Assembly (NCBI GenBank): GCA_965263185.1 | Contig: OZ253588.1 | Location: 1,153,454 to 1,217,453, forward strand | Length of the DNA: 64,000 nt | DNA from: Dehalococcoidia bacterium | GTDB lineage: Bacteria > Chloroflexota > Dehalococcoidia > Lucifugimonadales > UBA2985 | Direction of reading: 5' to 3' | Shown here: positions 16,456 through 58,765 of the stretch, in pieces | Numbering within the stretch: position 1 is the first letter of the stretch | How the letters are laid out: each line of letters starts with the position of its first letter | Made by a program: the position numbers and the translations under genes | The notes under the pieces: generated by a model | The model's input: the letters and a program-made list of their open reading frames with translations, nothing else | Databases searched by the model: none | Told to the model about the DNA's origin: nothing

Positions 16456-17439
16456 CTACTCCTGGGGCCGAATCAGCAGCACGGGGCTGTAGGACGACCT
16501 GAGGACGCGATCGGCCACGCTTCCCATTATCCAGCGTCCCAGGCCGGAGCGGCCGTGGGTGCACATTACGATGAGGGTTCCATCGTTCTCGGCGGCCAGG
16601 TCGACAATGTGGTCCGCCGGAAAGCCGACCTTCACCGTGCAATCGACGTCAAACCCCTTCATCTGCAGCTCCGCCTGCTTCTCATTCAGATAGCTGACGG
16701 CGGCGCTCTCTATGCTCTCGACCATCTGCGGGTCAAAGGCGTAGCCCTCCATGGACGGGTAGGCCATTGTGGGCGTGGTCACCACCTGCACCAGGGACAG
16801 CTTGACGCCCATTGGCCCGGCCAACGCCTCCGCGTGGGACAGCGCCAACTCCGCCAGCGCTGAGCCGTCCAGGGGCACCAGGATGGTGTCGATTGTCTTT
16901 CTCTCCAACGCGGTCTCTCCGCCGTCTCTGGGCCGCAGGAGAAACAGGGGGACGGACGAGGATTGCAGCAGCTTGCCGGCGTTGCTGCCGTACACCCACC
17001 TGCTCAGTCCGGAGCGGCCGTGAGTGGACATGGCTATGAGGTCGATGTCCTCCTCCTGGGCGATGGCCGTTATCGCCGATGTGGGGTCGTCTCCGTGGAC
17101 GGCCCTTGTCCTGGTCCTGAGCGACGGCAACGATGCGGCGACCTGCGCCAGTCGCTCCTCCGCGGCGCGGAGGGCGCGTTCCATCATCTGCTCCCTGGTC
17201 TCGGCGGAAGCGACCGAGGAGTCCGGCATGTCGCGAAGGTATGACGTCCCCGCCATGCCGAACGCGCCCGTGGCCTCGTCGACCATGGGCAGGGCCTCCA
17301 TCCAGGTGCCTCCGATCTTTGGCTCCTCCACCACGGTCAGCAGAAGCGCCTCAGCGTCGACCGCCTCCACCAGCTGAGCCACCCGTCCCAAAACCGCTTC
17401 CGAAAACCTGGAGCCGTCCAGAGGAACGAGGACCTTCAT
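16456..17439 (-). CDS. Tandem-domain universal stress protein
   Basis: Two UspA domains, each ending in the G-x2-G-x9-GS motif (MSTHGRSGLSRWVYGSNAGKLL; MCTHGRSGLGRWIMGSVADRVL). Confidence 0.85.
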   Translation of the reverse strand: MKVLVPLDGSRFSEAVLGRVAQLVEAVDAEALLLTVVEEPKIGGTWMEALPMVDEATGAFGMAGTSYLRDMPDSSVASAETREQMMERALRAAEERLAQVAASLPSLRTRTRAVHGDDPTSAITAIAQEEDIDLIAMSTHGRSGLSRWVYGSNAGKLLQSSSVPLFLLRPRDGGETALERKTIDTILVPLDGSALAELALSHAEALAGPMGVKLSLVQVVTTPTMAYPSMEGYAFDPQMVESIESAAVSYLNEKQAELQMKGFDVDCTVKVGFPADHIVDLAAENDGTLIVMCTHGRSGLGRWIMGSVADRVLRSSYSPVLLIRPQE

Positions 17440-17558
17440 TGCAACCTCCCGTCTTGTTTCATCACAGGCTGGGTATATTATACTCCACCGTCAACCTCCT
17501 CACGTCCTATTTGCGTGTGGTATTATCTAGGGACTTGGGTTGCCGGAGAGAAGTTGCA

Positions 17559-17901
17559 ATGCACATAACGAGCATAGCTAGTCAAGACATACCACAGATA
17601 GACGGTATTGATTTCCAATTTCATAAGCGGGTGAACCTGTTCATCGGCCCAAACGCGTCCGGCAAGAGTACCATCCTGCGGGCTATAATGCATTTGCGCT
17701 CCTTGGCGCTAGCGTCGGGGGGATCTACTATTCGCTCATTAGAAGCCAGAGGTATCTTTAACTGGGGCGATAGCACTACATATGTGGATGGAATCAACTA
17801 CCCCAGCCCTGGGGGTGGTCTGTCATTTGGTATGGAAGCAAGCGATGATTGGCCGCGAGATGACAAAGGGGGCATCAGATGGACCGAAGTGCCTTTCTTA
17901 T
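17559..17901 (+). pseudogene. ptuA: Septu-like PtuA ATPase, N-terminal fragment (gene split by IS1380-family insertion)
   Basis: Walker A motif LFIGPNASGKST. The reading frame runs straight into the IS left end at 17902. Confidence 0.7.
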
Positions 17902-19606
17902 CCCGAATCCACCGAAGGACACGGATGGGCGGCGTGAGGACCGGAGAAGGGGGATGAGAGAGCTACAGGGGAGATGGCCTGGGCTCGATTGGGGTAGATG
18001 GGAGGTCGGCGGAGGGACTTCAGTCACCGCACAGGCCCCCAATGGCCGTCTGCGGGAGCTGGGATGCGGGGGATGGCAAGAGAATAGGCAGCAGGGAACT
18101 CCCGCGGAGCTGGTTGGTGCGAGTTGGCGGGGACGTTGGGTCAGTGGCGGAGGGCGCCGTCAGGCTGGGAGTGGAATGGCTCGCAGCCGGGCCAGGGCGC
18201 GACTGAACTGGGTATCCCAGGGCCAGCGCCGGGGAAGATGCAGGGTCAATCGGCGTGCCGAGCGAGTGAGCCGTCCGGCCAAGGCGAAGACCCGTCGTCT
18301 GAGGGTCTTGGTGGTCACGATCTGCTCACCCAGGCCGATGCGGGCTGTCCAGCGGGCCAGGTTGTGTGCCATCACCTGTACCGCCAGCCAGGCTCCGTTG
18401 GCGGCGAAGCGGCCGGACGGCATGTGGTTCAGTCCGACACCGTACTTGAGGTCGCGTATCGCATTCTCGATCTCGGCGTGACGGCGATGATCAGCCTCCA
18501 GTTCGAGCATCTCCCCATCGCGGTCGGTGATGAAGCCGTGATAGCTGTAGGTGGCGAAGAGGGCCAACTGGGAACCGGGCGTGGGTTTCACCCGCCGGAC
18601 GATGAGCCGCACCGGCGCGGCGTCGGGCTCACTCTGGAAGGGGATATAGGTGGTCTCTGCCACATCGGCGGCGCCGTCCATCCAGTAGGGAATGGGAGTC
18701 CAGTCCTCTTCTGGTATGGCCTCGATGACATTGTGCAGGCTTTTGTGCTGGCGGATGGTGATGGAGAAGCGGACATCCATCTTGCGGCAGACGGATACCA
18801 CGCTATGAGCGTAGAAGCCGCTGTCGGCCCGCATCGTGAGTTGTCCCCTGGCCCCGGCGAAGCGCACCCGCCCCACCGTCTCACGCAGGAAGTGGGCGGC
18901 GCCGCGGGCGGTGTTGGCCCGGCCCTCGCGCAGCCGGGCCATCAGCACGTCTCCGGTTCCGGCGGCGACGGCCAGCAGCGGGTGATAGCCCCGCTGACCG
19001 GTGTAACCATGGTGGCGCGCCCCTTCCTTGGCCAGTCCATAGGTCTCGCAGATGGTGGAGTCCAGGTCGATGGTCAGGGGCCCGTCGCCGGGTCCGGCCC
19101 CGGCAGCCCAGGCCCGGGCCAGCAACTCCCGGCTAACCCGGTCCAGTTGGCGGACATGGCCCCACCTGAAGCTGCGCAGGAAGGCGCCCAGGGTGGAGGG
19201 AGCCTTAGCCGTGAAACCGAGAACGCGGGCGGTCCCGCCGGCGCGTAGCACATCGGCGTCGTCGATGCAGTCGCCACCGGCCAACGCGGAGGCCACCAGC
19301 GTCATCATCTTGTCACCGGTGTTGGCTCTGCCTTTTGCATGGCCCAGGTCCAGGTGCCGGTCAACCAGTTGGGGCAGGCCAAGGCGCAGGGCCAGGGTGG
19401 ACGGAAGAATCAGCCCGGCATTGGCCACCAGGCGGTGATCATCGAAGGCGATGCGGATGCGGTCGGGTTGGTGGCGTGGTAGCATCTATTGGGTGCTCCT
19501 TTTCCGGGACTGGTTTGCTGTTACAAAACCATTATCCCAGATTCAGAGGAGCACCCTTTGGCCACTTCAGGACGCTGACCCGACGCCCTCCTTCGGTGGA
19601 TTCGGG
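17902..19606 (-). mobile_element. IS1380-family insertion sequence, copy 1 (1705 bp)
   Basis: Perfect 17-bp terminal inverted repeats CCCGAATCCACCGAAGG. 5-bp direct target duplication CTTAT (17897-17901 and 19607-19611). Near-identical second copy at 54921-56625. Confidence 0.9.
18160..19485 (-). CDS. IS1380-family DDE transposase
   Basis: 441 aa. The C-terminal HRRHAEIENAIRDLKYGVGLNHMPSGRFAANGAWL block is typical of IS1380 transposases. Confidence 0.85.
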   Translation of the reverse strand: MLPRHQPDRIRIAFDDHRLVANAGLILPSTLALRLGLPQLVDRHLDLGHAKGRANTGDKMMTLVASALAGGDCIDDADVLRAGGTARVLGFTAKAPSTLGAFLRSFRWGHVRQLDRVSRELLARAWAAGAGPGDGPLTIDLDSTICETYGLAKEGARHHGYTGQRGYHPLLAVAAGTGDVLMARLREGRANTARGAAHFLRETVGRVRFAGARGQLTMRADSGFYAHSVVSVCRKMDVRFSITIRQHKSLHNVIEAIPEEDWTPIPYWMDGAADVAETTYIPFQSEPDAAPVRLIVRRVKPTPGSQLALFATYSYHGFITDRDGEMLELEADHRRHAEIENAIRDLKYGVGLNHMPSGRFAANGAWLAVQVMAHNLARWTARIGLGEQIVTTKTLRRRVFALAGRLTRSARRLTLHLPRRWPWDTQFSRALARLRAIPLPA

Positions 19607-20618
19607 CTTATATATACCCTCAACTCGGATCAGCCTCCCGGTCCAGCATGTTTTTGAGCCTCACATTTTTGACCAAGCAATAGAGGAGCCGGAAGATGTA
19701 GACGCAGATACAATACTGAAGCGCCTGTTTGACACTGAATCCGGTATCTTTGACGGCCGGTACGTGGAGTTGGCTATAGACCGGCTTCGCAAGGGAATGG
19801 TTGGGAATATAATCCAGCAGAACAACCTCAGTCGTGCTTTAGAGGACGCGTATACCTGTGCCTCGCGCATTTGTTCAGAGGTAATAAGCGATCGTTCCCC
19901 GCATCCCTACGTTGACCAGTATGAGACCGAGGGGACTAAGAGGACTGTTCATCATGCCATGGGGATAGGGACAAGCGACGTTTCTTGGAATACAGAGCAG
20001 CCTCTGTACGCAGGCGCTTTGAGCTCGGGGACCCAGGGAACTCTCCTGTGGGTCTACGCCCTAGCTCTCAAGATAGGAGAGCACTATGGGTTCGACGAGT
20101 ATTGGTGGGGCGGACAAGATAAGCCTGCAATCCTACTGATTGACGAGATAGAGAACCACCTGCATCCCACCTGGCAGCGGAGGGTTATACCGAAGCTGCT
20201 GGAGCATTTTCCCGGCTTGCAGATATTCGCTACAACCCACTCCCCCTTCGTGGTGGCCGGCCTGAAGGCCTGGCAGGTCCACCTGCTGAAGCGCGACGAA
20301 AACGGACGCGTCACCGCCACGACCTACCCCGAGGACGTTATCGGCTGGACGGCGGACGAGATCCTGCGGAACATGATGGGCGTTGAGGAGCCTACTGACC
20401 AACTCACAGTCGACCGCGCTAACCGGCTGCGGCAGCTCAGGGAAAAGGAAACGCTGACTCCCGAGGAAGAGTCCGAGTTGAACGAGCTGCGACGCCAGGT
20501 AAACGAGGATTTGTTGTCCAAGGGCGGCCCACTGGAAGCTCAGAGGGAGCGTTACGCGGACTTGATGGAGCGATTCCTGCTTTCCCGACAATCTGATCTC
20601 ACTCAAGAAGGAGATTAG
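19607..20618 (+). pseudogene. ptuA: Septu-like PtuA ATPase, C-terminal fragment
   Basis: ABC-type signature LSSGTQG, Walker B ILLIDEIENHLHP and H-loop ATTHSP. Deleting the IS and one TSD copy joins it in frame to 17559-17901 (..TEVPFLYIPSTRISLP..). Confidence 0.7.
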
Positions 20619-20623
20619 GCGGG

Positions 20624-21298
20624 ATGCGATGGATTGACAGAGGGCCGGAACCAGGCGGAGTCGCCGGATACGCCGGACGGTTCACACAAGGCTGGATCGA
20701 TTATTTTGAGAACGCAGTTGGCGGGAGGCCGTCGGATTTCTTCTGGGCAGAGTTCCGGTCAACCCTCGGAAGCCGGACCAACAGTATCTGCTGGTATTGT
20801 GAGAGGCAATGCTACGCCAATGCTGAGTCCGGTGGACGCGCCCCTACTGTTGACCACTTCCGGCCCCTCAGCAGGTTTCCGGTGCTGGCCTACGATTGGT
20901 CGAACTGGGTTTTCAGTTGCCGGCGGTGCAACGTTGAGAATAAACAAGACGGGTGGCCGGAACAGGGGTACGTGGACCCTTGCGCTGCCGTTGCTGCAGA
21001 GCGACCGGACCGTTACTTTGACTATGACGCTAAAACCGGGGGAATAATACCCAATGGCGGTCTTGCCGGTGACGCCCGCCTGAAAGCTGTGCGTACTATA
21101 AATGACTTGGGGCTAAACAAGCTGGACGTACAACACTATCGCTTTTATCATACGCAAAGGTTCATCAACGACTTGAGGAAGCTGCCCGTTAGCGACAGGC
21201 AGGATTTCATCGCTCTATTCACTGAACAGTTCGTTGAATATGCCGGAGTGACCAGGATGGTTGTAGAACAAGAGCCTGAACTATTCCAGGAGAATTGA
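20624..21298 (+). CDS. ptuB: HNH endonuclease of the PtuB / TIGR02646-like type
   Basis: CWYCERQC..TVDHFRPLS..NWVFSCRRCNVENK (HNH with Cys pairs). 224 aa, 5 nt downstream of the ATPase gene. Confidence 0.7.
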   Translation: MRWIDRGPEPGGVAGYAGRFTQGWIDYFENAVGGRPSDFFWAEFRSTLGSRTNSICWYCERQCYANAESGGRAPTVDHFRPLSRFPVLAYDWSNWVFSCRRCNVENKQDGWPEQGYVDPCAAVAAERPDRYFDYDAKTGGIIPNGGLAGDARLKAVRTINDLGLNKLDVQHYRFYHTQRFINDLRKLPVSDRQDFIALFTEQFVEYAGVTRMVVEQEPELFQEN

Positions 21299-21329
21299 TG
21301 CCCGGCGCGCATAGATGCTCGCCTGATAA

Positions 21330-21650
21330 TCAGCCGCCGACCTGCGCCGTATCCCTGGGCTGCACCTGTTCCCTGATGTCCTTGCCGGACGCTATCTCCG
21401 CCGTTCGCAGCTCAAAGGTCTTCTGGAGGTTTAACCAGAGCTGCGGGCTTGTGCCAAGGTAGCGGGACAGGCGCAGGGCGGTGTCGGCGGTTACGCCACT
21501 CTGCCCCTTTAGGATAGCCGTGATCCGGTTGGTGGGGACTCCCAAGGCAAGAGCCATCGCATTGGCCGACATGCCAAGCTCTCCAAGCTCCTCGCTCAGT
21601 ATCTCGCCGGGATGCACCGGCCGCATACCGTTGCTCACGTTCATCTCCAA
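21330..21650 (-). CDS. higA: HigA-family antitoxin (XRE-type HTH)
   Basis: RPVHPGEILSEELGELGMSANAMALALGVPTNRITAILKGQSGVTADTALRLSRYLGTSPQLWLNLQ is the canonical HigA HTH. No intact higB is adjacent. Confidence 0.8.
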   Translation of the reverse strand: MEMNVSNGMRPVHPGEILSEELGELGMSANAMALALGVPTNRITAILKGQSGVTADTALRLSRYLGTSPQLWLNLQKTFELRTAEIASGKDIREQVQPRDTAQVGG

Positions 21651-21808
21651 AGTGGCTCAAAGGTTGATTTTCAACTCTACTGCAGGCCGCTTGGCCTGGC
21701 AACCGGCAGGGCAAATGCAGCCCGGTATGGGGCCTGTGGTGAGATATGGTATGATTCGACTACTACACTATCGCACAGGTCTATAAGGCCGTCATTCAAG
21801 GAGGCAGC

Positions 21809-23497
21809 ATGCAATCTAGCGCACGGGATTTCAACCCAAAGCACATGAGCCAGGAGATAACCCAGGGCCCGGAGCGCGCCCCGGCCCGTACCATGCTCCG
21901 GGCAACCGGACTCGATGACGCCGCGCTGGCAAACCCCTTTGTCGGCATTGCCAACCTTGCGAGCGACGTTACACCCTGCAACATGCACCTGGGACGCCTG
22001 TCCGTCAGGATCAAGGAGGGCATACGGGCCGCTGGCGGCACACCCTTCGAGTTTGGGACCATCACGGTCAGCGACGGCATCTCTATGGGCACAGAGGGCA
22101 TGAAGGCCTCCCTGGTCAGCCGCGAGGTGATCGCCGACTCCATTGAGCTTGTGTCTATGGCCGAATGGTTTGACGGCCTGGTGACCGTTGGCGGCTGCGA
22201 CAAGAACCTGCCGGGGTGCCTCATGGCAATGGCGCGGCTGAACATACCATCAGTTTTCGTCTACGGGGGAACCATCCTTCCGGGCCGGTTCCAGGGGCGG
22301 GACGTCAACATCCAGGACGTGTTCGAGGCTGTGGGCGCCCACTCCCGCGGCAATATGTCGGACGCCGAGTTGCTGGAGCTGGAGCGCGTCGCTTGCCCAG
22401 GTGAGGGTTCCTGCGCCGGCCTCTTTACCGCCAACACCATGTCCTCGGCCATCGAGGCCCTGGGCATGTCTCTCCCAGGCGATGCCTCAATTCCGGCGGT
22501 TGACCCCCGGAAGGCGGACGAGTGCAAGCGCGCCGGGGAGGCGGCGCTTCATCTGCTGGAGTTGGGCATCAGGCCCAGCGACATCCTCACCCGCGCGGCC
22601 TTCGAGAACGCCATTGCCGTGGTGGTGGCGATGGGCGGGTCGACCAACGCGGTGCTTCACCTGCTGGCCATCAGCCGAGAGGCGGGCGTGCCGCTGGAGA
22701 TAGACGACTTCGACTACATCAGCCGGAACACCCCCTACATCGCCGATATGCGGCCCGGCGGGAAGCACGTCATGGCAGACCTGGACAGGGTGGGCGGGCT
22801 TTCCCAGGTGATGAGGCGTCTGCTGGATGCAGGCCTGCTTAACGGCGATACCCTGACCGTTACCGGCAAGACCCTTCGCGAGAACCTGGAGGGTATTGAG
22901 GAGGCGAGCGACCAGAGCATTGTCTATCCCGTGTCCTCGCCGCTGAGCGAAACAGGCTCCCTGGTCATACTCAAGGGCAACCTGGCTCCGGAGGGCGGGG
23001 TCATAAAGGTGGCCGGCAACCAGAAGACGTACCACCAGGGGCCCGCCAGGGTGTTCGACCGGGAGCAGGATGCCTTTCAGACGGTGCGGAGCGGGGGAAT
23101 CAACCAGGGCGACGTGGTGGTCATTCGCTACGAAGGGCCCAAGGGCGGGCCGGGGATGCGGGAGATGCTTGCGGTGACGGCGGCGCTGGTGGGACAGGGG
23201 CTTGGTGAGCATGTAGCCCTGCTCACCGACGGCAGGTTCTCAGGCGCAACCCACGGACTGATGGTTGGACACGTAGCCCCGGAAGCGGCGGTGCAGGGGC
23301 CAATCGCCGCGCTGCAAGACGGCGACATCGTAACACTGGACGTCCCCAACCGGCGGCTGGACGTGTCTCTCTCCGATGACGAGATAGCTGAGCGGTTGGC
23401 GGCGTGGGCTCCGCCAGCGCCAACGCACACCACCGGCGCCTTGGGCAAGTACGCGCGGCTGGTGGGCTCCGCGTCGATGGGCGCGGTCACGGGGTAG
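21809..23497 (+). CDS. ilvD: Dihydroxy-acid dehydratase
   Basis: [35 protein letters not shown] and TDGRFSGAT motifs. Confidence 0.95.
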
Positions 23498-41670: not shown

Positions 41671-42031
<361 letters not shown>

Positions 42032-53483: not shown

Positions 53484-54524
53484 ATGGTACAGAAAAATGC
53501 GAGCAAGGGCAAAACTTCGCCCAGCCATAGATTCCAGACGCTGATCCGTCGATTGTCGCAGGCAGGGTTTGACAAAGGATTCGTTCGCCCAGCCCTTCTG
53601 CCTGACTGGTGGGATGAAACTTGCGACCAAGACCCCGATCTGTTGCCAGACTTCGAAATAAGGGTGGCAAGGTTTTTAGGGATGCCTCTCACTAGCATAC
53701 GGGACTCTGGCACCACTTTGGCCCTACCACCATTTCCGGGTGCGAAGCTACGTCGGGTGCGAGACGTTGATAGTGAGCGTCTAAAACCAGCAATTCACTT
53801 GGCTGTTAGGATTGCTGAAGCAACAGTTCGTAGTCTTCGGGACCCCACATCCCAACCTGTGATACCTCCCATTGACGGGATCGAATGGCGCAAGAACATT
53901 GAGTCTAATGGCTCTGCCATCACTCTGGATCAGATGCTCGGCGACCTGTGGCTACGTGGCATCCCCGTCGTTCCGCTGGAAATAATCCCAGCTCCCAGTT
54001 TCCAGGCCATTGCGTGCATCGTAGAGGACCGGCCCGTAATCTTGCTTGGCTACAAATATGACGAACCCGGACGCATAGCCTTCTTGTTGGCACATGAGGC
54101 CGCGCATCTCGCTGTGGGCGACTGCGATTCCGACCATATCGTCTTAGATGGTGAAGAAGGGATTGTAGATGAAACGGACATTGAAGTTAAGGCTGACCAG
54201 TATGCTCACAATGTGCTTGTCGGGGAGAAACAAATACCTGAACTGGAGAATCGAGAGTTCAAGGGAATTGCCAAAGAGTCGGCGGAACAAGAACGTTTGA
54301 CGGGTATCGACGCCGGAATTATCATAGCGGACTGGGCTTCGCGCACACGGGAATACGCCAAGGCTACTATGGCGTTGAAAGCCCTCTATCGGAGTTCAGG
54401 CGGAAGGCAAAAGATTGGTCGGTATTTTAATAGTCTGGTTGACGTTGCGTCCGCGACCGAGAGTGACCGCAACCTGCTACGCTGTGTGTACGGCGTGTCG
54501 AATTTGTATGAAACTGTTGGTTGA
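53484..54524 (+). CDS. ImmA/IrrE (COG2856)-like zinc metallopeptidase domain protein
   Basis: HExxH motif in FLLAHEAAHLAVGD. 346 aa. No recognisable HTH. First gene of an overlapping operon in a lower-GC island. Confidence 0.65.
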   Translation: MVQKNASKGKTSPSHRFQTLIRRLSQAGFDKGFVRPALLPDWWDETCDQDPDLLPDFEIRVARFLGMPLTSIRDSGTTLALPPFPGAKLRRVRDVDSERLKPAIHLAVRIAEATVRSLRDPTSQPVIPPIDGIEWRKNIESNGSAITLDQMLGDLWLRGIPVVPLEIIPAPSFQAIACIVEDRPVILLGYKYDEPGRIAFLLAHEAAHLAVGDCDSDHIVLDGEEGIVDETDIEVKADQYAHNVLVGEKQIPELENREFKGIAKESAEQERLTGIDAGIIIADWASRTREYAKATMALKALYRSSGGRQKIGRYFNSLVDVASATESDRNLLRCVYGVSNLYETVG

Positions 54525-54920
54525 TACTGATGCCTTTTGCAAGTTGTCTGCGAGCGGATTGTTCTTCAAGGCGATTGATCTCCTTGGGGCAGATATCACC
54601 GAATGTGCTCGGTTACCGGCCCTTCCGTACATGCTAAAGAAGGGCCGATTGAGGACTATGTATGGCCCTGCAGTATGTGACGAATTGATGCCGATTGCTC
54701 ATAGTATGCCCATCGTGGATTGCACTAACAACGTCTGGCTGGACAAGTTGACGTTGGTGCAATCAATAGACCCTGGTGAGGCTCAACTCTTCGCAATGGG
54801 CGCTGCGACCGGGTTTCTAGTGATGACCGGAGACAAACGTGCACTTCGTGAGCTAAAGAGTATTCCCGATTTCCCCCAATTGCTTTCCGGACGTATAGTC
54901 GTATTGGAGACTGTTCTAAT
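54508..54920 (+). pseudogene. PIN-like domain protein, N-terminal fragment (split by IS1380-family insertion)
   Basis: MKLLVDTDAFCKL.., DPGEAQLFA and LVMTGDKRALREL give the D/E/D pattern of PIN-like nucleases. It overlaps the upstream gene by 17 nt, and the frame runs into the IS at 54921. Confidence 0.55.
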
Positions 54921-56625
54921 CCCGAATCCACCGAAGGACACGGATGGGCGGCGTGAGGACCGGAGAAGGGGGATGAGAGAGCTACAGGGGAGATGGCCTG
55001 GGCTCGATTGGGGTAGATGGGAGGTCGGCGGAGGGACTTCAGTCACCGCACAGGCCCCCAATGGCCGTCTGCGGGAGCTGGGATGCGGGGGATGGCAAGA
55101 GAATAGGCAGCAGGGAACTCCCGCGGAGCTGGTTGGTGCGAGTTGGCGGGGACGTTGGGTCAGTGGCGGAGGGCGCCGTCAGGCTGGGAGTGGAATGGCT
55201 CGCAGCCGGGCCAGGGCGCGACTGAACTGGGTATCCCAGGGCCAGCGCCGGGGAAGATGCAGGGTCAATCGGCGTGCCGAGCGAGTGAGCCGTCCGGCCA
55301 AGGCGAAGACCCGTCGTCTGAGGGTCTTGGTGGTCACGATCTGCTCACCCAGGCCGATGCGGGCTGTCCAGCGGGCCAGGTTGTGTGCCATCACCTGTAC
55401 CGCCAGCCAGGCTCCGTTGGCGGCGAAGCGGCCGGACGGCATGTGGTTCAGTCCGACACCGTACTTGAGGTCGCGTATCGCATTCTCGATCTCGGCGTGA
55501 CGGCGATGATCAGCCTCCAGTTCGAGCATCTCCCCATCGCGGTCGGTGATGAAGCCGTGATAGCTGTAGGTGGCGAAGAGGGCCAACTGGGAACCGGGCG
55601 TGGGCTTCACCCGCCGGACGATGAGCCGCACCGGCGCGGCGTCGGGCTCACTCTGGAAGGGGATATAGGTGGTCTCTGCCACATCGGCGGCGCCGTCCAT
55701 CCAGTAGGGAATGGGAGTCCAGTCCTCTTCTGGTATGGCCTCGATGACATTGTGCAGGCTTTTGTGCTGGCGGATGGTGATGGAGAAGCGGACATCCATC
55801 TTGCGGCAGACGGATACCACGCTATGAGCGTAGAAGCCGCTGTCGGCCCGCATCGTGAGTTGTCCCCTGGCCCCGCCGTAGCGAACCCGGCTCACCGTTT
55901 CACGCAGGAAGTGCGCGGCGCCGCGGGCGGTGTTGGCCCGGCCCTCCCGCAGCCGGGCCAGCAGCACGTCTCCGGTTCCGGCGGCGACGGCCAGCAGCGG
56001 GTGATAGCCCCGCACACCGGTGTAGCCGTGGTGGCGTGCGCCCTCCTTGGCCAGTCCGTAGGTCTCGCAGATGGTGGAGTCCAGGTCGATGGTCAGGGGC
56101 CCGTCGCCTGGTCCGGCCCCAGCCGCCCAGGCCCGGGCCAGCAACTCGCGGCTCACCCGGTCCAGTTGGCGGACATGGCCCCACCTGAAGCTGCGCAGGA
56201 AGGCGCCCAGGGTGGAGGGAGCCTTAGCCGTGAAACCGAGAACGCGGGCGATCCCCCCGGCGCGTAGCACATCGGCGTCGTCGATGCAGTCGCCACCGGC
56301 CAACGCGGAGGCCACCAGCGTCATCATCTTGTCACCGGTGTTGGCTCTGCCTTTTGCATGGCCCAGGTCCAGGCGCCGGTCAACCAGTTGGGGCAGGCCA
56401 AGGCGCAGGGCCAGGGTGGACGGAAGAATCAGCCCGGCATTGGCCACCAGGCGGTGATCATCGAAGGCGATGCGGATGCGGTCGGGTTGGTGGCGTGGTA
56501 GCATCTATTGGGTGCTCCTTTTCCGGGACTGGTTTGCTGTTACAAAACCATTATCCCAGATTCAGAGGAGCACCCTTTGGCCACTTCAGGACGCTGACCC
56601 GACGCCCTCCTTCGGTGGATTCGGG
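54921..56625 (-). mobile_element. IS1380-family insertion sequence, copy 2 (1705 bp)
   Basis: Same 17-bp terminal IRs as copy 1. 5-bp target duplication CTAAT (54916-54920 and 56626-56630). Confidence 0.9.
55179..56504 (-). CDS. IS1380-family DDE transposase
   Basis: 441 aa. Differs from the copy-1 protein at a handful of positions clustered in the N-terminal half. Confidence 0.85.
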   Translation of the reverse strand: MLPRHQPDRIRIAFDDHRLVANAGLILPSTLALRLGLPQLVDRRLDLGHAKGRANTGDKMMTLVASALAGGDCIDDADVLRAGGIARVLGFTAKAPSTLGAFLRSFRWGHVRQLDRVSRELLARAWAAGAGPGDGPLTIDLDSTICETYGLAKEGARHHGYTGVRGYHPLLAVAAGTGDVLLARLREGRANTARGAAHFLRETVSRVRYGGARGQLTMRADSGFYAHSVVSVCRKMDVRFSITIRQHKSLHNVIEAIPEEDWTPIPYWMDGAADVAETTYIPFQSEPDAAPVRLIVRRVKPTPGSQLALFATYSYHGFITDRDGEMLELEADHRRHAEIENAIRDLKYGVGLNHMPSGRFAANGAWLAVQVMAHNLARWTARIGLGEQIVTTKTLRRRVFALAGRLTRSARRLTLHLPRRWPWDTQFSRALARLRAIPLPA

Positions 56626-56829
56626 CTAATTGCTCTTTGTGATCGGTTCGGGCCTGACAAGATACGCCAATGCATTCAGGGACTGGCCGCATGGGACATA
56701 GTCGCCCGGAATAGTTTCTCCTCTGGCAACACCGATCCTCGGGATGGCCTGAACTCGTATTACAATGACCTCGAGGTCGAAGTCGACCCGTTAGTCCTGT
56801 GGAATCCTAGATCGCAAGGGAACTCATGA
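56626..56829 (+). pseudogene. PIN-like domain protein, C-terminal fragment
   Basis: Removing the IS and one TSD copy restores ..VVLETVLIALCDRFGPDKIRQ.. in frame. The stop overlaps the next start (ATGA). Confidence 0.55.
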
Positions 56830-57866
56830 CTTTCGGCTCTTGCCATTACGTGCCTGTATTGAAAATGAAGCGTGGTGAAAAGGGCGCGCTTCGTGCCATC
56901 ATACCTAGCCTTCGACCACGCATTACACCATTGCTAGAAATTGTGGAGAGAACTAAACCCACAGTGGGGGAGCACCTCGATACTGCTTTCAAGGATCTTG
57001 CAGAGAGCCTTCAAGGATACCAGCGTTGTTTCCTAGACACCCGTGCAATCGCTCTGGACGGCCCACCGGCTGCAGAAGAAGTCTTCAATCGGGCGAATGC
57101 GGCTGGTATTTCCTTTACACCAGTTACTGGAGTCACTAGGACCGAGGACGTTGCTGCTGCCCTTAGCCACAATTCCAACGGAGTGGCCTTACGTCTAACC
57201 CGTCAGGAATTCGAGGACGGACTCCTCCCCGGAGCTATTCCAAGAGTAATGGGTACGCATGGGCTTACTCCAGAGGAAATAGACCTCATAATTGATCTGG
57301 GCCCAGTTGATGATTTCGTTACCGATGGTATTGTCGCGTTAACCAACGCCTTTCTCGCAGAAGTCCCCCATCATACAAGATGGCGGACATTCACCATTTC
57401 AGGATGCGCATTCCCGCCGAACATGGGGATAGTACCACGAAACTCTTATGCTTATGTTGAGCGTACAGAGTGGCTTGCTTGGAGAGATAATCTCCGGGCG
57501 AGTGCGAATGCGATTCCACGTGTCCCAACATTTAGCGACTGCGCCATTCAGCACCCCATTGGCGTGGAGGGCTTTGACCCAACGTTCATGAAAGTCTCTG
57601 CCTCCCAAAGATACACGCTAGATGAGCACTGGCTTTTAATTAAAGGTGAAAGCACAAAGAACTTTCCAGCAAGGGATCAATTTCCAAGTCTAGCCACCCA
57701 ACTAGTTTACGGATTTCATAGGGGTTCTTATATGGGACCCCAGCATTGTCAGGGATGTGAACAAATTGAAAGAGCGGCAAATGGTGAACCCAAACTCGGT
57801 TCAGCAGAAGTTTGGCGCCGGATCGGCACAATTCACCACATTTCTACAGTTGTGCAGCATCTGTAA
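56826..57866 (+). CDS. Beta-protein / sce7725-like family protein (function unknown)
   Basis: The N-terminal YVPVLKMKRGEKGALRAI matches, from memory, the YxPxLKxKxGExxAL hallmark of the Beta_protein family. 346 aa. Confidence 0.55.
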   Translation: MTFGSCHYVPVLKMKRGEKGALRAIIPSLRPRITPLLEIVERTKPTVGEHLDTAFKDLAESLQGYQRCFLDTRAIALDGPPAAEEVFNRANAAGISFTPVTGVTRTEDVAAALSHNSNGVALRLTRQEFEDGLLPGAIPRVMGTHGLTPEEIDLIIDLGPVDDFVTDGIVALTNAFLAEVPHHTRWRTFTISGCAFPPNMGIVPRNSYAYVERTEWLAWRDNLRASANAIPRVPTFSDCAIQHPIGVEGFDPTFMKVSASQRYTLDEHWLLIKGESTKNFPARDQFPSLATQLVYGFHRGSYMGPQHCQGCEQIERAANGEPKLGSAEVWRRIGTIHHISTVVQHL

Positions 57867-58440
57867 TTCTTTTCCTGACCCTAAGCTGGGTCCTCACCCT
57901 GTCGGCGATTTCCTGTGTTTTGAAGAAATGACACACTTTGTCCCAGACAACCCTGCGAGGCTTTCCACGTACGCCACGCGCCGCAGAGCGTTCTTCCAGA
58001 AGTGCGATGGCTTCGTTATGCCATAACAGCTCAACCAAAGCCCTAGAATCGACAGATACGTTTTTCTTGGGTCGCCTTATAGTCTTAATTCTTGAAGTTC
58101 TTGGACCACCCGTAAAGAGTAAGACCCCCCACCATTCAGGAACGATCTCCAGGACTGAAGTGAGGTGACGTTCGCCCACAACTATCGTGGCCCGGTCTAA
58201 TACTTTACTGTACAGCTCAACCTGATGGTCGAGGCGATGTAGACTGTCACGATCAGACTTAATTTCGTATCCCTCGAGAGAGGAATTTACCACCAACATG
58301 TCTATTCGCACTGAACCCCGACAGATTCCGAGCTCTTCAATTAACAGGAAATCTGCGCAATTTGTATGTCTACTGAACAGCCGCTGACGTAACGCTTGTC
58401 GAATATCTGAGTCACTCGAAAGGGGGTTCCGGTTATCCAT
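57844..58440 (-). CDS. sce7726-like protein, predicted PD-(D/E)xK nuclease fold
   Basis: IEELGICRGSVRIDMLVVNSSLEGYEIKSDRDSLHRL gives a D..E-x-K arrangement. Start is ATG 58440. The 3' end overlaps the convergent gene by 23 nt. Confidence 0.55.
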   Translation of the reverse strand: MDNRNPLSSDSDIRQALRQRLFSRHTNCADFLLIEELGICRGSVRIDMLVVNSSLEGYEIKSDRDSLHRLDHQVELYSKVLDRATIVVGERHLTSVLEIVPEWWGVLLFTGGPRTSRIKTIRRPKKNVSVDSRALVELLWHNEAIALLEERSAARGVRGKPRRVVWDKVCHFFKTQEIADRVRTQLRVRKRITDAAQL

Positions 58441-58495
58441 GCCGTTCGGATTCTCCTTAAGTGATCCTGTTCTCACTCTACCACGTCCCGAAGCT

Positions 58496-58765
58496 TCATG
58501 CCACCCGCCTGACCTGCCAGCGCAGGTACTCAACCTGACCAGAGACAACGCGCGTCAGAGCCGTCGCCTGGAATGCCAAGACCGACATAGTGTTGTGCAG
58601 GCTGATCTTCCTGATCCCACGCACACAGTGGGCTTCCAGCCGTCTGGATTGCTTCAGGCTCTTGAAGACCCGCTCCACGCTTTGCCGCAGGACGTACAGG
58701 TCCTTCCACTCACGGCTCCCCGCACGTAAAAGGGGTTGACAGGCGTTATCAGGAGCGGGTATCAT
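58496..58765 (-). pseudogene. C-terminal remnant of an IS4/IS5-superfamily (DDE_Tnp_1) transposase
   Basis: YVLRQSVERVFKSLKQSRRLEAHCVRGIRKISLHNTMSVLAFQATAL is the typical C-terminal block. No catalytic N-terminal part is present. Confidence 0.6.

Follow-up and report, generated by a model that had tools for sequence, protein, structure and literature searches.

We analyzed a 64,000-nucleotide stretch of contig OZ253588.1 (assembly GCA_965263185.1), hereafter called the window, from an uncultured member of the Dehalococcoidia (Chloroflexota). Between the genes usp and ilvD, the window holds a gene for an ATPase and, directly downstream on the same strand, a gene for an HNH protein, which we identify as ptuA and ptuB of a Septu anti-phage defense system. 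The ptuA gene is split by an insertion sequence (IS) of the IS1380 family, and an antitoxin gene, higA, lies beyond ptuB (Table 1). With a probability of roughly 90%, the locus is a stand-alone (type I) Septu system, ptuA followed by ptuB, that has lost its function through a precise IS insertion into ptuA. Septu systems are already known, and defense genes are commonly knocked out by ISs; taken by itself, the locus is a routine case of such a loss.

The start codon of ptuA is the ATG at 17559, preceded at a distance of 7 nt by GGAGAG, and the frame is cut after codon 114, where homology is lost. As it stands, the 5′ fragment runs into the IS and reaches a stop codon at 17955-17957, which gives a product of 132 amino acids. 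Joining 17559-17901 to 19612-20618, that is, removing the IS and one copy of CTTAT, yields a frame of 1350 nt and 449 amino acids with 0 stops, which reads ..GGIRWTEVPFLYIPSTRISLPVQHVF.. across the junction and ends at the stop codon 20616-20618. The first-pass annotation of this DNA had proposed a cut near codon 114 by a 1705-bp IS and a continuous frame of ~450 amino acids once the IS and one CTTAT copy were taken out; the size and the position of the cut proved exact and the frame was recovered. The ATPase motifs that it had listed are all there: Walker A GPNASGKST at residues 30-38, the signature LSSGTQG at 251-257, Walker B and D-loop ILLIDEIENHLHP at 288-300, and the H-loop ATTHSP at 321-326. 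The residues G30, N32, G35, K36, L251-S252-x-G254-x-Q256, D292-E293 and H324 are invariant in 69 homologues and are kept in the joined protein.

The ATG of ptuB (20624) is preceded by AAGGAG and stands 5 nt past the stop codon of ptuA, the spacing that had been noted for the HNH protein of 224 amino acids. This protein carries C56xxC59, D77-H78, N94 and C99xxC102-N103. The two genes thus form an adjacent, co-directional ptuA-ptuB operon, and nearly all of 47 related loci have the same gene order with a gap of a few nucleotides, most commonly 5 nt as in the window. What sets the locus apart from a complete Septu operon, in which both genes are intact, is the 1705-bp IS that divides ptuA.

Table 1. 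Features of the usp-ilvD interval (positions in the window)
Feature	Position	Strand	Remarks
Variable cargo of the usp-ilvD hotspot	17543..21791		Septu pair, IS and higA
ptuA, 5′ fragment	17559..17901	+	Codons 1-114 plus 1 nt; holds Walker A
CTTAT target-site duplication, left copy	17897..17901		5 bp
IS1380-family insertion sequence	17902..19606	-	1705 bp; transposase antisense to ptuA
IS1380-family DDE transposase gene	18160..19485	-	441 amino acids, intact; NCBIfam and Pfam profiles
CTTAT target-site duplication, right copy	19607..19611		
ptuA, 3′ fragment	19612..20618	+	Codons 115-449; signature, Walker B, H-loop and helical C-terminal extension
ptuB, HNH nuclease (predicted)	20624..21298	+	224 amino acids, intact; PADLOC, Pfam and fold matches
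higA, orphan antitoxin gene (HTH_3)	21330..21650	-	TIGR02607, 94.7 bits (cut-off 47.7)

The identity of the pair was assessed by sequence and by fold. PtuA models make up nearly all of the top PADLOC matches to the joined ATPase (best 2.7e-38), and PtuB models lead those to the HNH protein (best 7.5e-18). Taken singly, the 5′ fragment of ptuA matches the N-terminal part of PtuA at 2.2e-8 and the 3′ fragment matches at 8.3e-34. Pfam assigns AAA_21 and AAA_15 to the joined PtuA and HNH to PtuB (31.3 bits, cut-off 21.4), and PtuB scores 46.1 bits, just under the cut-off of 52.15, on NCBIfam TIGR02646 ("retron system putative HNH endonuclease"). The closest solved structure to PtuA by sequence is the E. 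coli Septu PtuA (8ee4, 4e-17), with retron PtuA chains next, and the closest to PtuB are the PtuB chains of retron Ec78. We modeled the joined PtuA with AlphaFold2 from an alignment of 69 sequences (predicted local distance difference test, pLDDT, 78.8). The 50 best fold matches of this model in the PDB are all PtuA, and the E. coli Septu structure 8EEA occupies ranks 1-4. The PtuB model (pLDDT 91.2) has 11 significant fold matches, all of them PtuB over the full length (8EEA_G, TMq 0.71); the next matches are Cas9 HNH domains with E above 0.1. Helical parts are predicted at H378-442 of PtuA and H149-221 of PtuB. The proposal of the first-pass annotation that the two genes are a Septu pair was open to refutation by a mismatch to PtuA and PtuB profiles, and these proved to be the best matches. 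Between usp and ilvD we found no open reading frame (ORF) for a reverse transcriptase (RT), an Rfam scan of the Septu locus returned no retron or other RNA, and PtuA is without the N-terminal extension of ~100 residues seen in retron PtuA. We therefore assign the pair to stand-alone, type I Septu.

The element in ptuA ends in perfect 18-nt inverted repeats, CCCGAATCCACCGAAGGA, at 17902-17919 and 19589-19606. The window contains this 18-mer 4 times, whereas 100 shuffles produced no copy of it. The transposase of the element reaches 324 bits on NF033539, the NCBIfam equivalog for IS1380 (cut-off 180), and 3.8e-58 on Pfam DDE_Tnp_1_4. Members of the IS1380 family, such as IS1380 and ISEcp1, are ~1.7 kb long and encode one DDE transposase of ~440 amino acids; they have short terminal inverted repeats starting with CC and duplicate 5 bp of the target. 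The DDE transposase, the terminal inverted repeats, the short duplication and the length of ~1.7 kb that mark the family are all found in the element of the window.

The exact 18-nt repeat occurs in at least 115 stretches of metagenome-assembled genomes (MAGs) of Dehalococcoidia in GTDB (L049-L163). Among the matches listed there are 57 distinct full copies of the IS, which measure 1674-1748 bp, mostly 1703-1719 bp. A perfect 5-bp duplication flanks 36 of these 57 copies, with the consensus Y-T-W-A-N, and the CTTAT of ptuA fits this consensus. The mismatched flanks of some pairs suggest IS-mediated rearrangements. The element is highly expanded in related MAGs, several of which carry many copies. 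In other genomes the flanks of the IS are slightly AT-richer than their surroundings: for a background of 0.606, guanine-plus-cytosine (GC) content is 0.584 in the nearest 250 nt and 0.52 in the nearest 30 nt, and it lies below the background in 39 of 53 copies.

A natural empty site is found on ENA contig L048, which shares the left-hand synteny ribBA-ribH-pterin dehydratase-udg-usp with the window. Across the junction, the peptide of its intact PtuA homologue (P0001), RWTEVPFLYIPSTRISLPVQHVFEPHIFDQAIEE, does not differ from that of the joined frame, and its DNA at the site (..GTGCCTTTCTTATATATACCC.., ..GAAGTGCCTTTCTTATATATACCCTCAACTCGG..) contains a single CTTAT. The left flank of the IS in the window aligns to nucleotides 1-337 of this gene and the right flank to nucleotides 333-1113, with an overlap of 5 bp and 89% nucleotide identity. 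Six further syntenic orthologues are colinear with the joined frame and read ..VP(F/L)LY(I/V)P(A/S)TR.. across the junction. The insertion itself recurs in a second assembly, L001 (a 387-kb ENA contig, 17x), which has identical junctions and differs from the window by 14 single-nucleotide polymorphisms (SNPs) in 20.7 kb. An exact search with the left flank found no IS-free copy of this allele in the GTDB species representatives, and JGI metagenome contigs gave no match to the empty-site or right-flank patterns, in either form. When 5.8 billion protein clusters were searched with the joined PtuA, the best full-length match was P0001, at 78% identity, and the matches at 100% were truncated fragments. 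Since the insertion is common to two assemblies and no IS-free copy of the allele turned up, it looks fixed in what has been sampled.

In order to assess decay, we examined 104 alignment columns that are kept at ≥95% across 114 full-length homologues of PtuA, and 56 columns kept at ≥90% across 43 relatives of PtuB. The joined PtuA deviates at one of its 104 columns, G335W (20271-20273 in the window), where G is found in 110 of the 114 homologues. This change is not clearly disabling, because the closest relative, P0001, carries R there and the aligned residue of the E. coli PtuA 8ee4 is E. PtuB deviates at none of its 56 columns, which include C56, C59, D77, H78, N94, C99, C102 and N103. The earlier claim that the locus carries no other lesion holds up, as neither a stop nor a frameshift is present. 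The ratio of nonsynonymous to synonymous divergence (dN/dS) of ptuA against L048 is 0.18-0.46, not near the 1 of an old pseudogene, which supports the view that decay has not yet set in. A long pseudogene history is ruled out by this ratio together with the 0 stops and the single changed conserved site. The first-pass annotation had suggested that the inactivation is recent. This stands insofar as no decay has accumulated; beyond that, the insertion is already present in the second assembly, 14 SNPs apart.

These observations suggest how the system would have been lost. An IS1380-family element jumped into the YTWAN target CTTAT at codons 114/115 of ptuA and duplicated the 5 bp. The insertion parts the P-loop of Walker A (residues 30-38) from the signature, Walker B and H-loop (251-326) and from the tail predicted to bind PtuB, and would leave ~1.7 kb of antisense DNA separating the promoter from the remaining operon. 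With the fragments separated and the operon displaced from its promoter, no functional PtuA would be made and defense would be lost despite the intact ptuB. We consider it highly probable, from the split in ptuA, that Septu function at this locus is completely gone. The intact form would presumably have acted against phages, and its loss, which may be recent, could have been neutral or selected.

Some points weigh against this reading. Fold alignments of PtuA with the solved PtuA chains show an identity of only 16-20%, and this clade may therefore have another target and another trigger. On the NCBIfam models for PtuA (NF041760) and PtuB (NF041761), the pair scores 116.8 against a cut-off of 500 bits and 41.7 against 150 bits; the models were built on retron Ec78, and scores far under the cut-off are expected for a stand-alone Septu. 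The loss of function is deduced from the split ptuA, and the window comes from a metagenome-derived assembly. A rival reading is that the pair is another system made of an ATPase and a nuclease, for example PARIS, Gabija, the effector of a type I-A retron or an AAA ATPase associated with restriction. The ATPase has weaker matches of this kind (ATPase_I-A 1.5e-35, AriA 1.9e-27, restrict_AAA_1 and MADS3), and ABC ATPase cores cross-match widely. Besides the ranking of the PADLOC matches and the lack of RT and msr/msd RNA at the locus, what speaks for Septu is that PtuA, at 449 amino acids, is without the extension of the retron PtuA of ~550 amino acids, that its best fold match is the stand-alone E. 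coli Septu, and that the protein encoded next to it, which combines HNH with a helical C-terminal domain of the PtuB type, is not a TOPRIM or DUF4435 protein. We regard a non-Septu identity as unlikely in the extreme. An assembly artefact, in which the repeated IS was mis-joined into a gene that is really intact, comes to mind given the origin of the sequence and the number of copies of the element, two in the window and many in related MAGs. It is very unlikely because the second assembly has the same junctions. Moreover, both junctions are exact, the 5-bp duplication fits the target consensus of the element itself, and target-site duplications are not produced by mis-assembly. The insertion is thus precise and real.

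The locus could conceivably still work in three ways: the fragments might reassemble, PtuB might act alone, or a GTG at 19596, in frame within the terminal repeat of the IS, might start a truncated and active PtuA. The full integrity of ptuB, the lack of accumulated decay and the fact that gene callers accept the ORF of 340 amino acids from this GTG would fit such activity. That shortened protein, however, lacks the Walker A P-loop, and in E. coli Septu immunity is abolished by mutants of Walker A or Walker B in PtuA and of H75 or N91 in PtuB (PMC13096335). In retron Ec78, PtuA alone is inactive and so is PtuB alone (PMC12819146). A promoter and terminator scan of 17400-21850 found no promoter-like site facing out of the IS towards ptuB above shuffled controls; because the scan as a whole did not rise above these controls, it only weakly favors the lack of an outward promoter at the IS ends. 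Residual activity is therefore quite improbable, and we retain the view of a Septu operon inactivated by the IS. The same GTG has a side effect on annotation: gene callers report an "AAA ATPase" of 340 (P0002) or 367 amino acids. As the 340-residue fragment reaches 8.3e-34 on PtuA models, automated PADLOC or DefenseFinder censuses may list this dead locus among the intact Septu systems.

The interval between usp and ilvD varies in content among relatives of the host, and all of the close loci come from uncultured Dehalococcoidia MAGs. Many of the related MAGs are presumably host-associated, to judge from their bin names. The limits of the cargo in the window are defined by the near-conspecific L167 (IlvD 98% and Usp 96% identical), to which DNA homology stops at 17542 and resumes at 21792. 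In L167 the gap (L167:3409-6000) is filled by a D12-class N6-adenine methyltransferase and an ORF of 282 amino acids, which resemble a restriction-modification system and have a GC content of 0.485. The gap is empty in L177 and holds only higA in L176. Intact ptuA-ptuB pairs occupy it in L002-L004, L006, L009, L013, L165, L166 and L169-L175, where IlvD is 79-98% identical to that of the window, and the pairs in this gap include two unrelated types of PtuB. The usp-ilvD gap is a variable defense hotspot and not the site of a one-off acquisition. This refines the first-pass description of the locus as a low-GC island. The GC contrast is there (0.50 and 0.56 in the ptuA fragments and 0.55 in ptuB, against 0.65 in usp and ilvD); the picture of a one-off island gives way to that of a hotspot whose cargo varies across relatives.

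The higA gene had been described as an orphan, and it is one: tblastn detected no higB or remnant of it near higA or elsewhere in the window. A remnant of higB within 21651-21808 was considered and dropped after the same search proved negative. In L006 (L006:9025-9444) and L009, an intact higB of 93-105 amino acids lies upstream of higA in the same place, where the window and L002 have ~158 bp left, with no higB gene or detectable remnant.

Related Septu loci show changes of their own. About 5 of 46 carry lesions, some of which may be sequencing errors. In L046, ptuB is split by an insertion of ~1.2 kb that encodes a different DDE transposase. The ptuB genes of L039, L043 and L044 have apparent frameshifts, and truncated forms of ptuA are seen in L026 and L044. 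A second Septu pair lies in tandem or nearby in L015, L018, L020 and L035, the last with three copies of ptuB.

Comparison with strains that are 95-98% identical to the window in usp, udg and ilvD (synonymous divergence, dS, ~0.1) revealed that ptuA is a mosaic. In a segment that ends at codon ~245-283 and begins at codon ~42 in the comparison with L002, or at the start codon in those with L166 and L164, the proteins share 36-48% amino acid identity and dS is saturated. The remainder of ptuA is 92-94% identical and ptuB 83-89%, with dS ~0.2. L048 shows the opposite pattern: PtuA is 82-91% identical in its N-terminal part and 63% in its tail, and PtuB 28%. The breakpoints of the mosaic fall at conserved ATPase motifs, and the segment between Walker A and the signature and Walker B (codons ~42-283) exists in at least four unrelated versions. 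Across strains, PtuB and the PtuA tail behave as a single co-inherited module, which is replaced wholesale in L048. Such a module matches the published physical interface of the two proteins, in which two C-terminal extensions of PtuA hold the helical C-terminal domain of a single PtuB between them (PMC12819146).

L164 (ERZ25071132, a 3x contig) is a sister strain from the same metagenome as the IS-interrupted allele. It is 95-98% identical from ptuA codon 283 on, has a third, unrelated N-terminal PtuA cassette and carries no IS. Its apparent frameshift may be an error due to low coverage.

We tentatively propose, as an idea that falls somewhat short of even odds, that strains exchange the N-terminal cassette of PtuA as a specificity module at a hotspot that itself stays fixed, and that low-GC defense loci in these genomes are eroded by a single IS lineage. 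The variable cassette is a candidate determinant of specificity within PtuA. If it senses phage, Septu specificity would be diversified by recombination, with the conserved ATPase motifs serving as anchors. For the IS, the proposal would mean that the bloom of one IS1380-family element, which prefers AT-rich YTWAN sites, erodes defense loci of low GC content. With its clean knock-out, the intact alleles of sister strains and a hotspot whose cargo varies, the locus is natural material for following how Septu is gained, lost and reshuffled by module exchange in uncultured Dehalococcoidia.

The window contains this IS once more, at 54921-56625; the second copy is flanked by the duplication CTAAT and differs from the copy in ptuA at 26 positions in 1705 bp. 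It interrupts an ORF of 203 amino acids (MKLLVDTDAFCKL..), whose frame is continuous when the flanks are joined and for which neither Pfam nor PADLOC gave a family. The surrounding region (53484-58548) is a defense-like islet of low GC content (~0.51). The ORF is adjoined by an ImmA/IrrE-like HEAAH protein with a weak match to PD-Lambda-2_B and by a gene similar to Beta_protein/PD-Lambda-2_C (4.4e-33), and a PADLOC match to "cll" (1.4e-27) also neighbors the copy. Both IS copies in the window thus interrupt genes in defense-like islets. Elsewhere, the sole Rfam match in the window is a bacterial RNase P RNA of class A (41673-42024, minus strand, 316 bits).

Compared with known elements and systems, the IS resembles the IS1380 family in its size, its single transposase, its inverted repeats that start with CC and its 5-bp duplication, and represents a Dehalococcoidia-specific lineage for which the target consensus YTWAN was derived here. 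Septu reportedly was first described by Doron and colleagues in 2018.

Retrons of type I-A (Ec78/Eco7 and Ec83) contain a PtuAB pair that is homologous to that of the window, again an ATPase with an HNH protein. They provide the best PDB sequence matches for the PtuB of the window, and the names of the NCBIfam models that match the pair come from this system. The window locus differs in having no RT or noncoding RNA and in not reaching the equivalog cut-offs. The N-terminal extension of ~100 amino acids that the PtuA of the window lacks is the part of retron PtuA that binds the RT and the noncoding RNA (PMC12819146).

The closest likeness is to the Septu of E. coli (8EE4, 8EE7, 8EEA, 8SUX; Ec-B88, PMC13096335), whose PtuA is an ABC/SMC-like ATPase that oligomerises. 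The stand-alone PtuAB complex is off before infection; it is reportedly inhibited by ATP and sensitized by a phage tail-fibre protein. Released PtuAB nicks supercoiled DNA in vitro (PMC12819146). Cleavage of tRNA-Tyr in vivo has also been reported for E. coli Septu, and the outcome is that phage production is arrested. Like the E. coli system, the window pair consists of two co-directional genes, ATPase first, with no RT. The PtuA proteins are alike as ABC-type ATPases of ~450 amino acids with Walker A and B, signature, H-loop and a helical C-terminal extension. The PtuB proteins are alike in having ~220 amino acids with an HNH core and a helical C-terminal domain, and the E. coli system is the best fold match; H78 and N94 in the window correspond to H75 and N91 in Ec-B88, with the same 16-residue spacing. 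The window pair differs from E. coli Septu in that its ptuA is interrupted by the IS and in that it shares 16-18% identity with the E. coli chains in fold alignments. It belongs to a large clade specific to Dehalococcoidia, from which 1677 PtuA-like and 787 PtuB-like clusters were retrieved.

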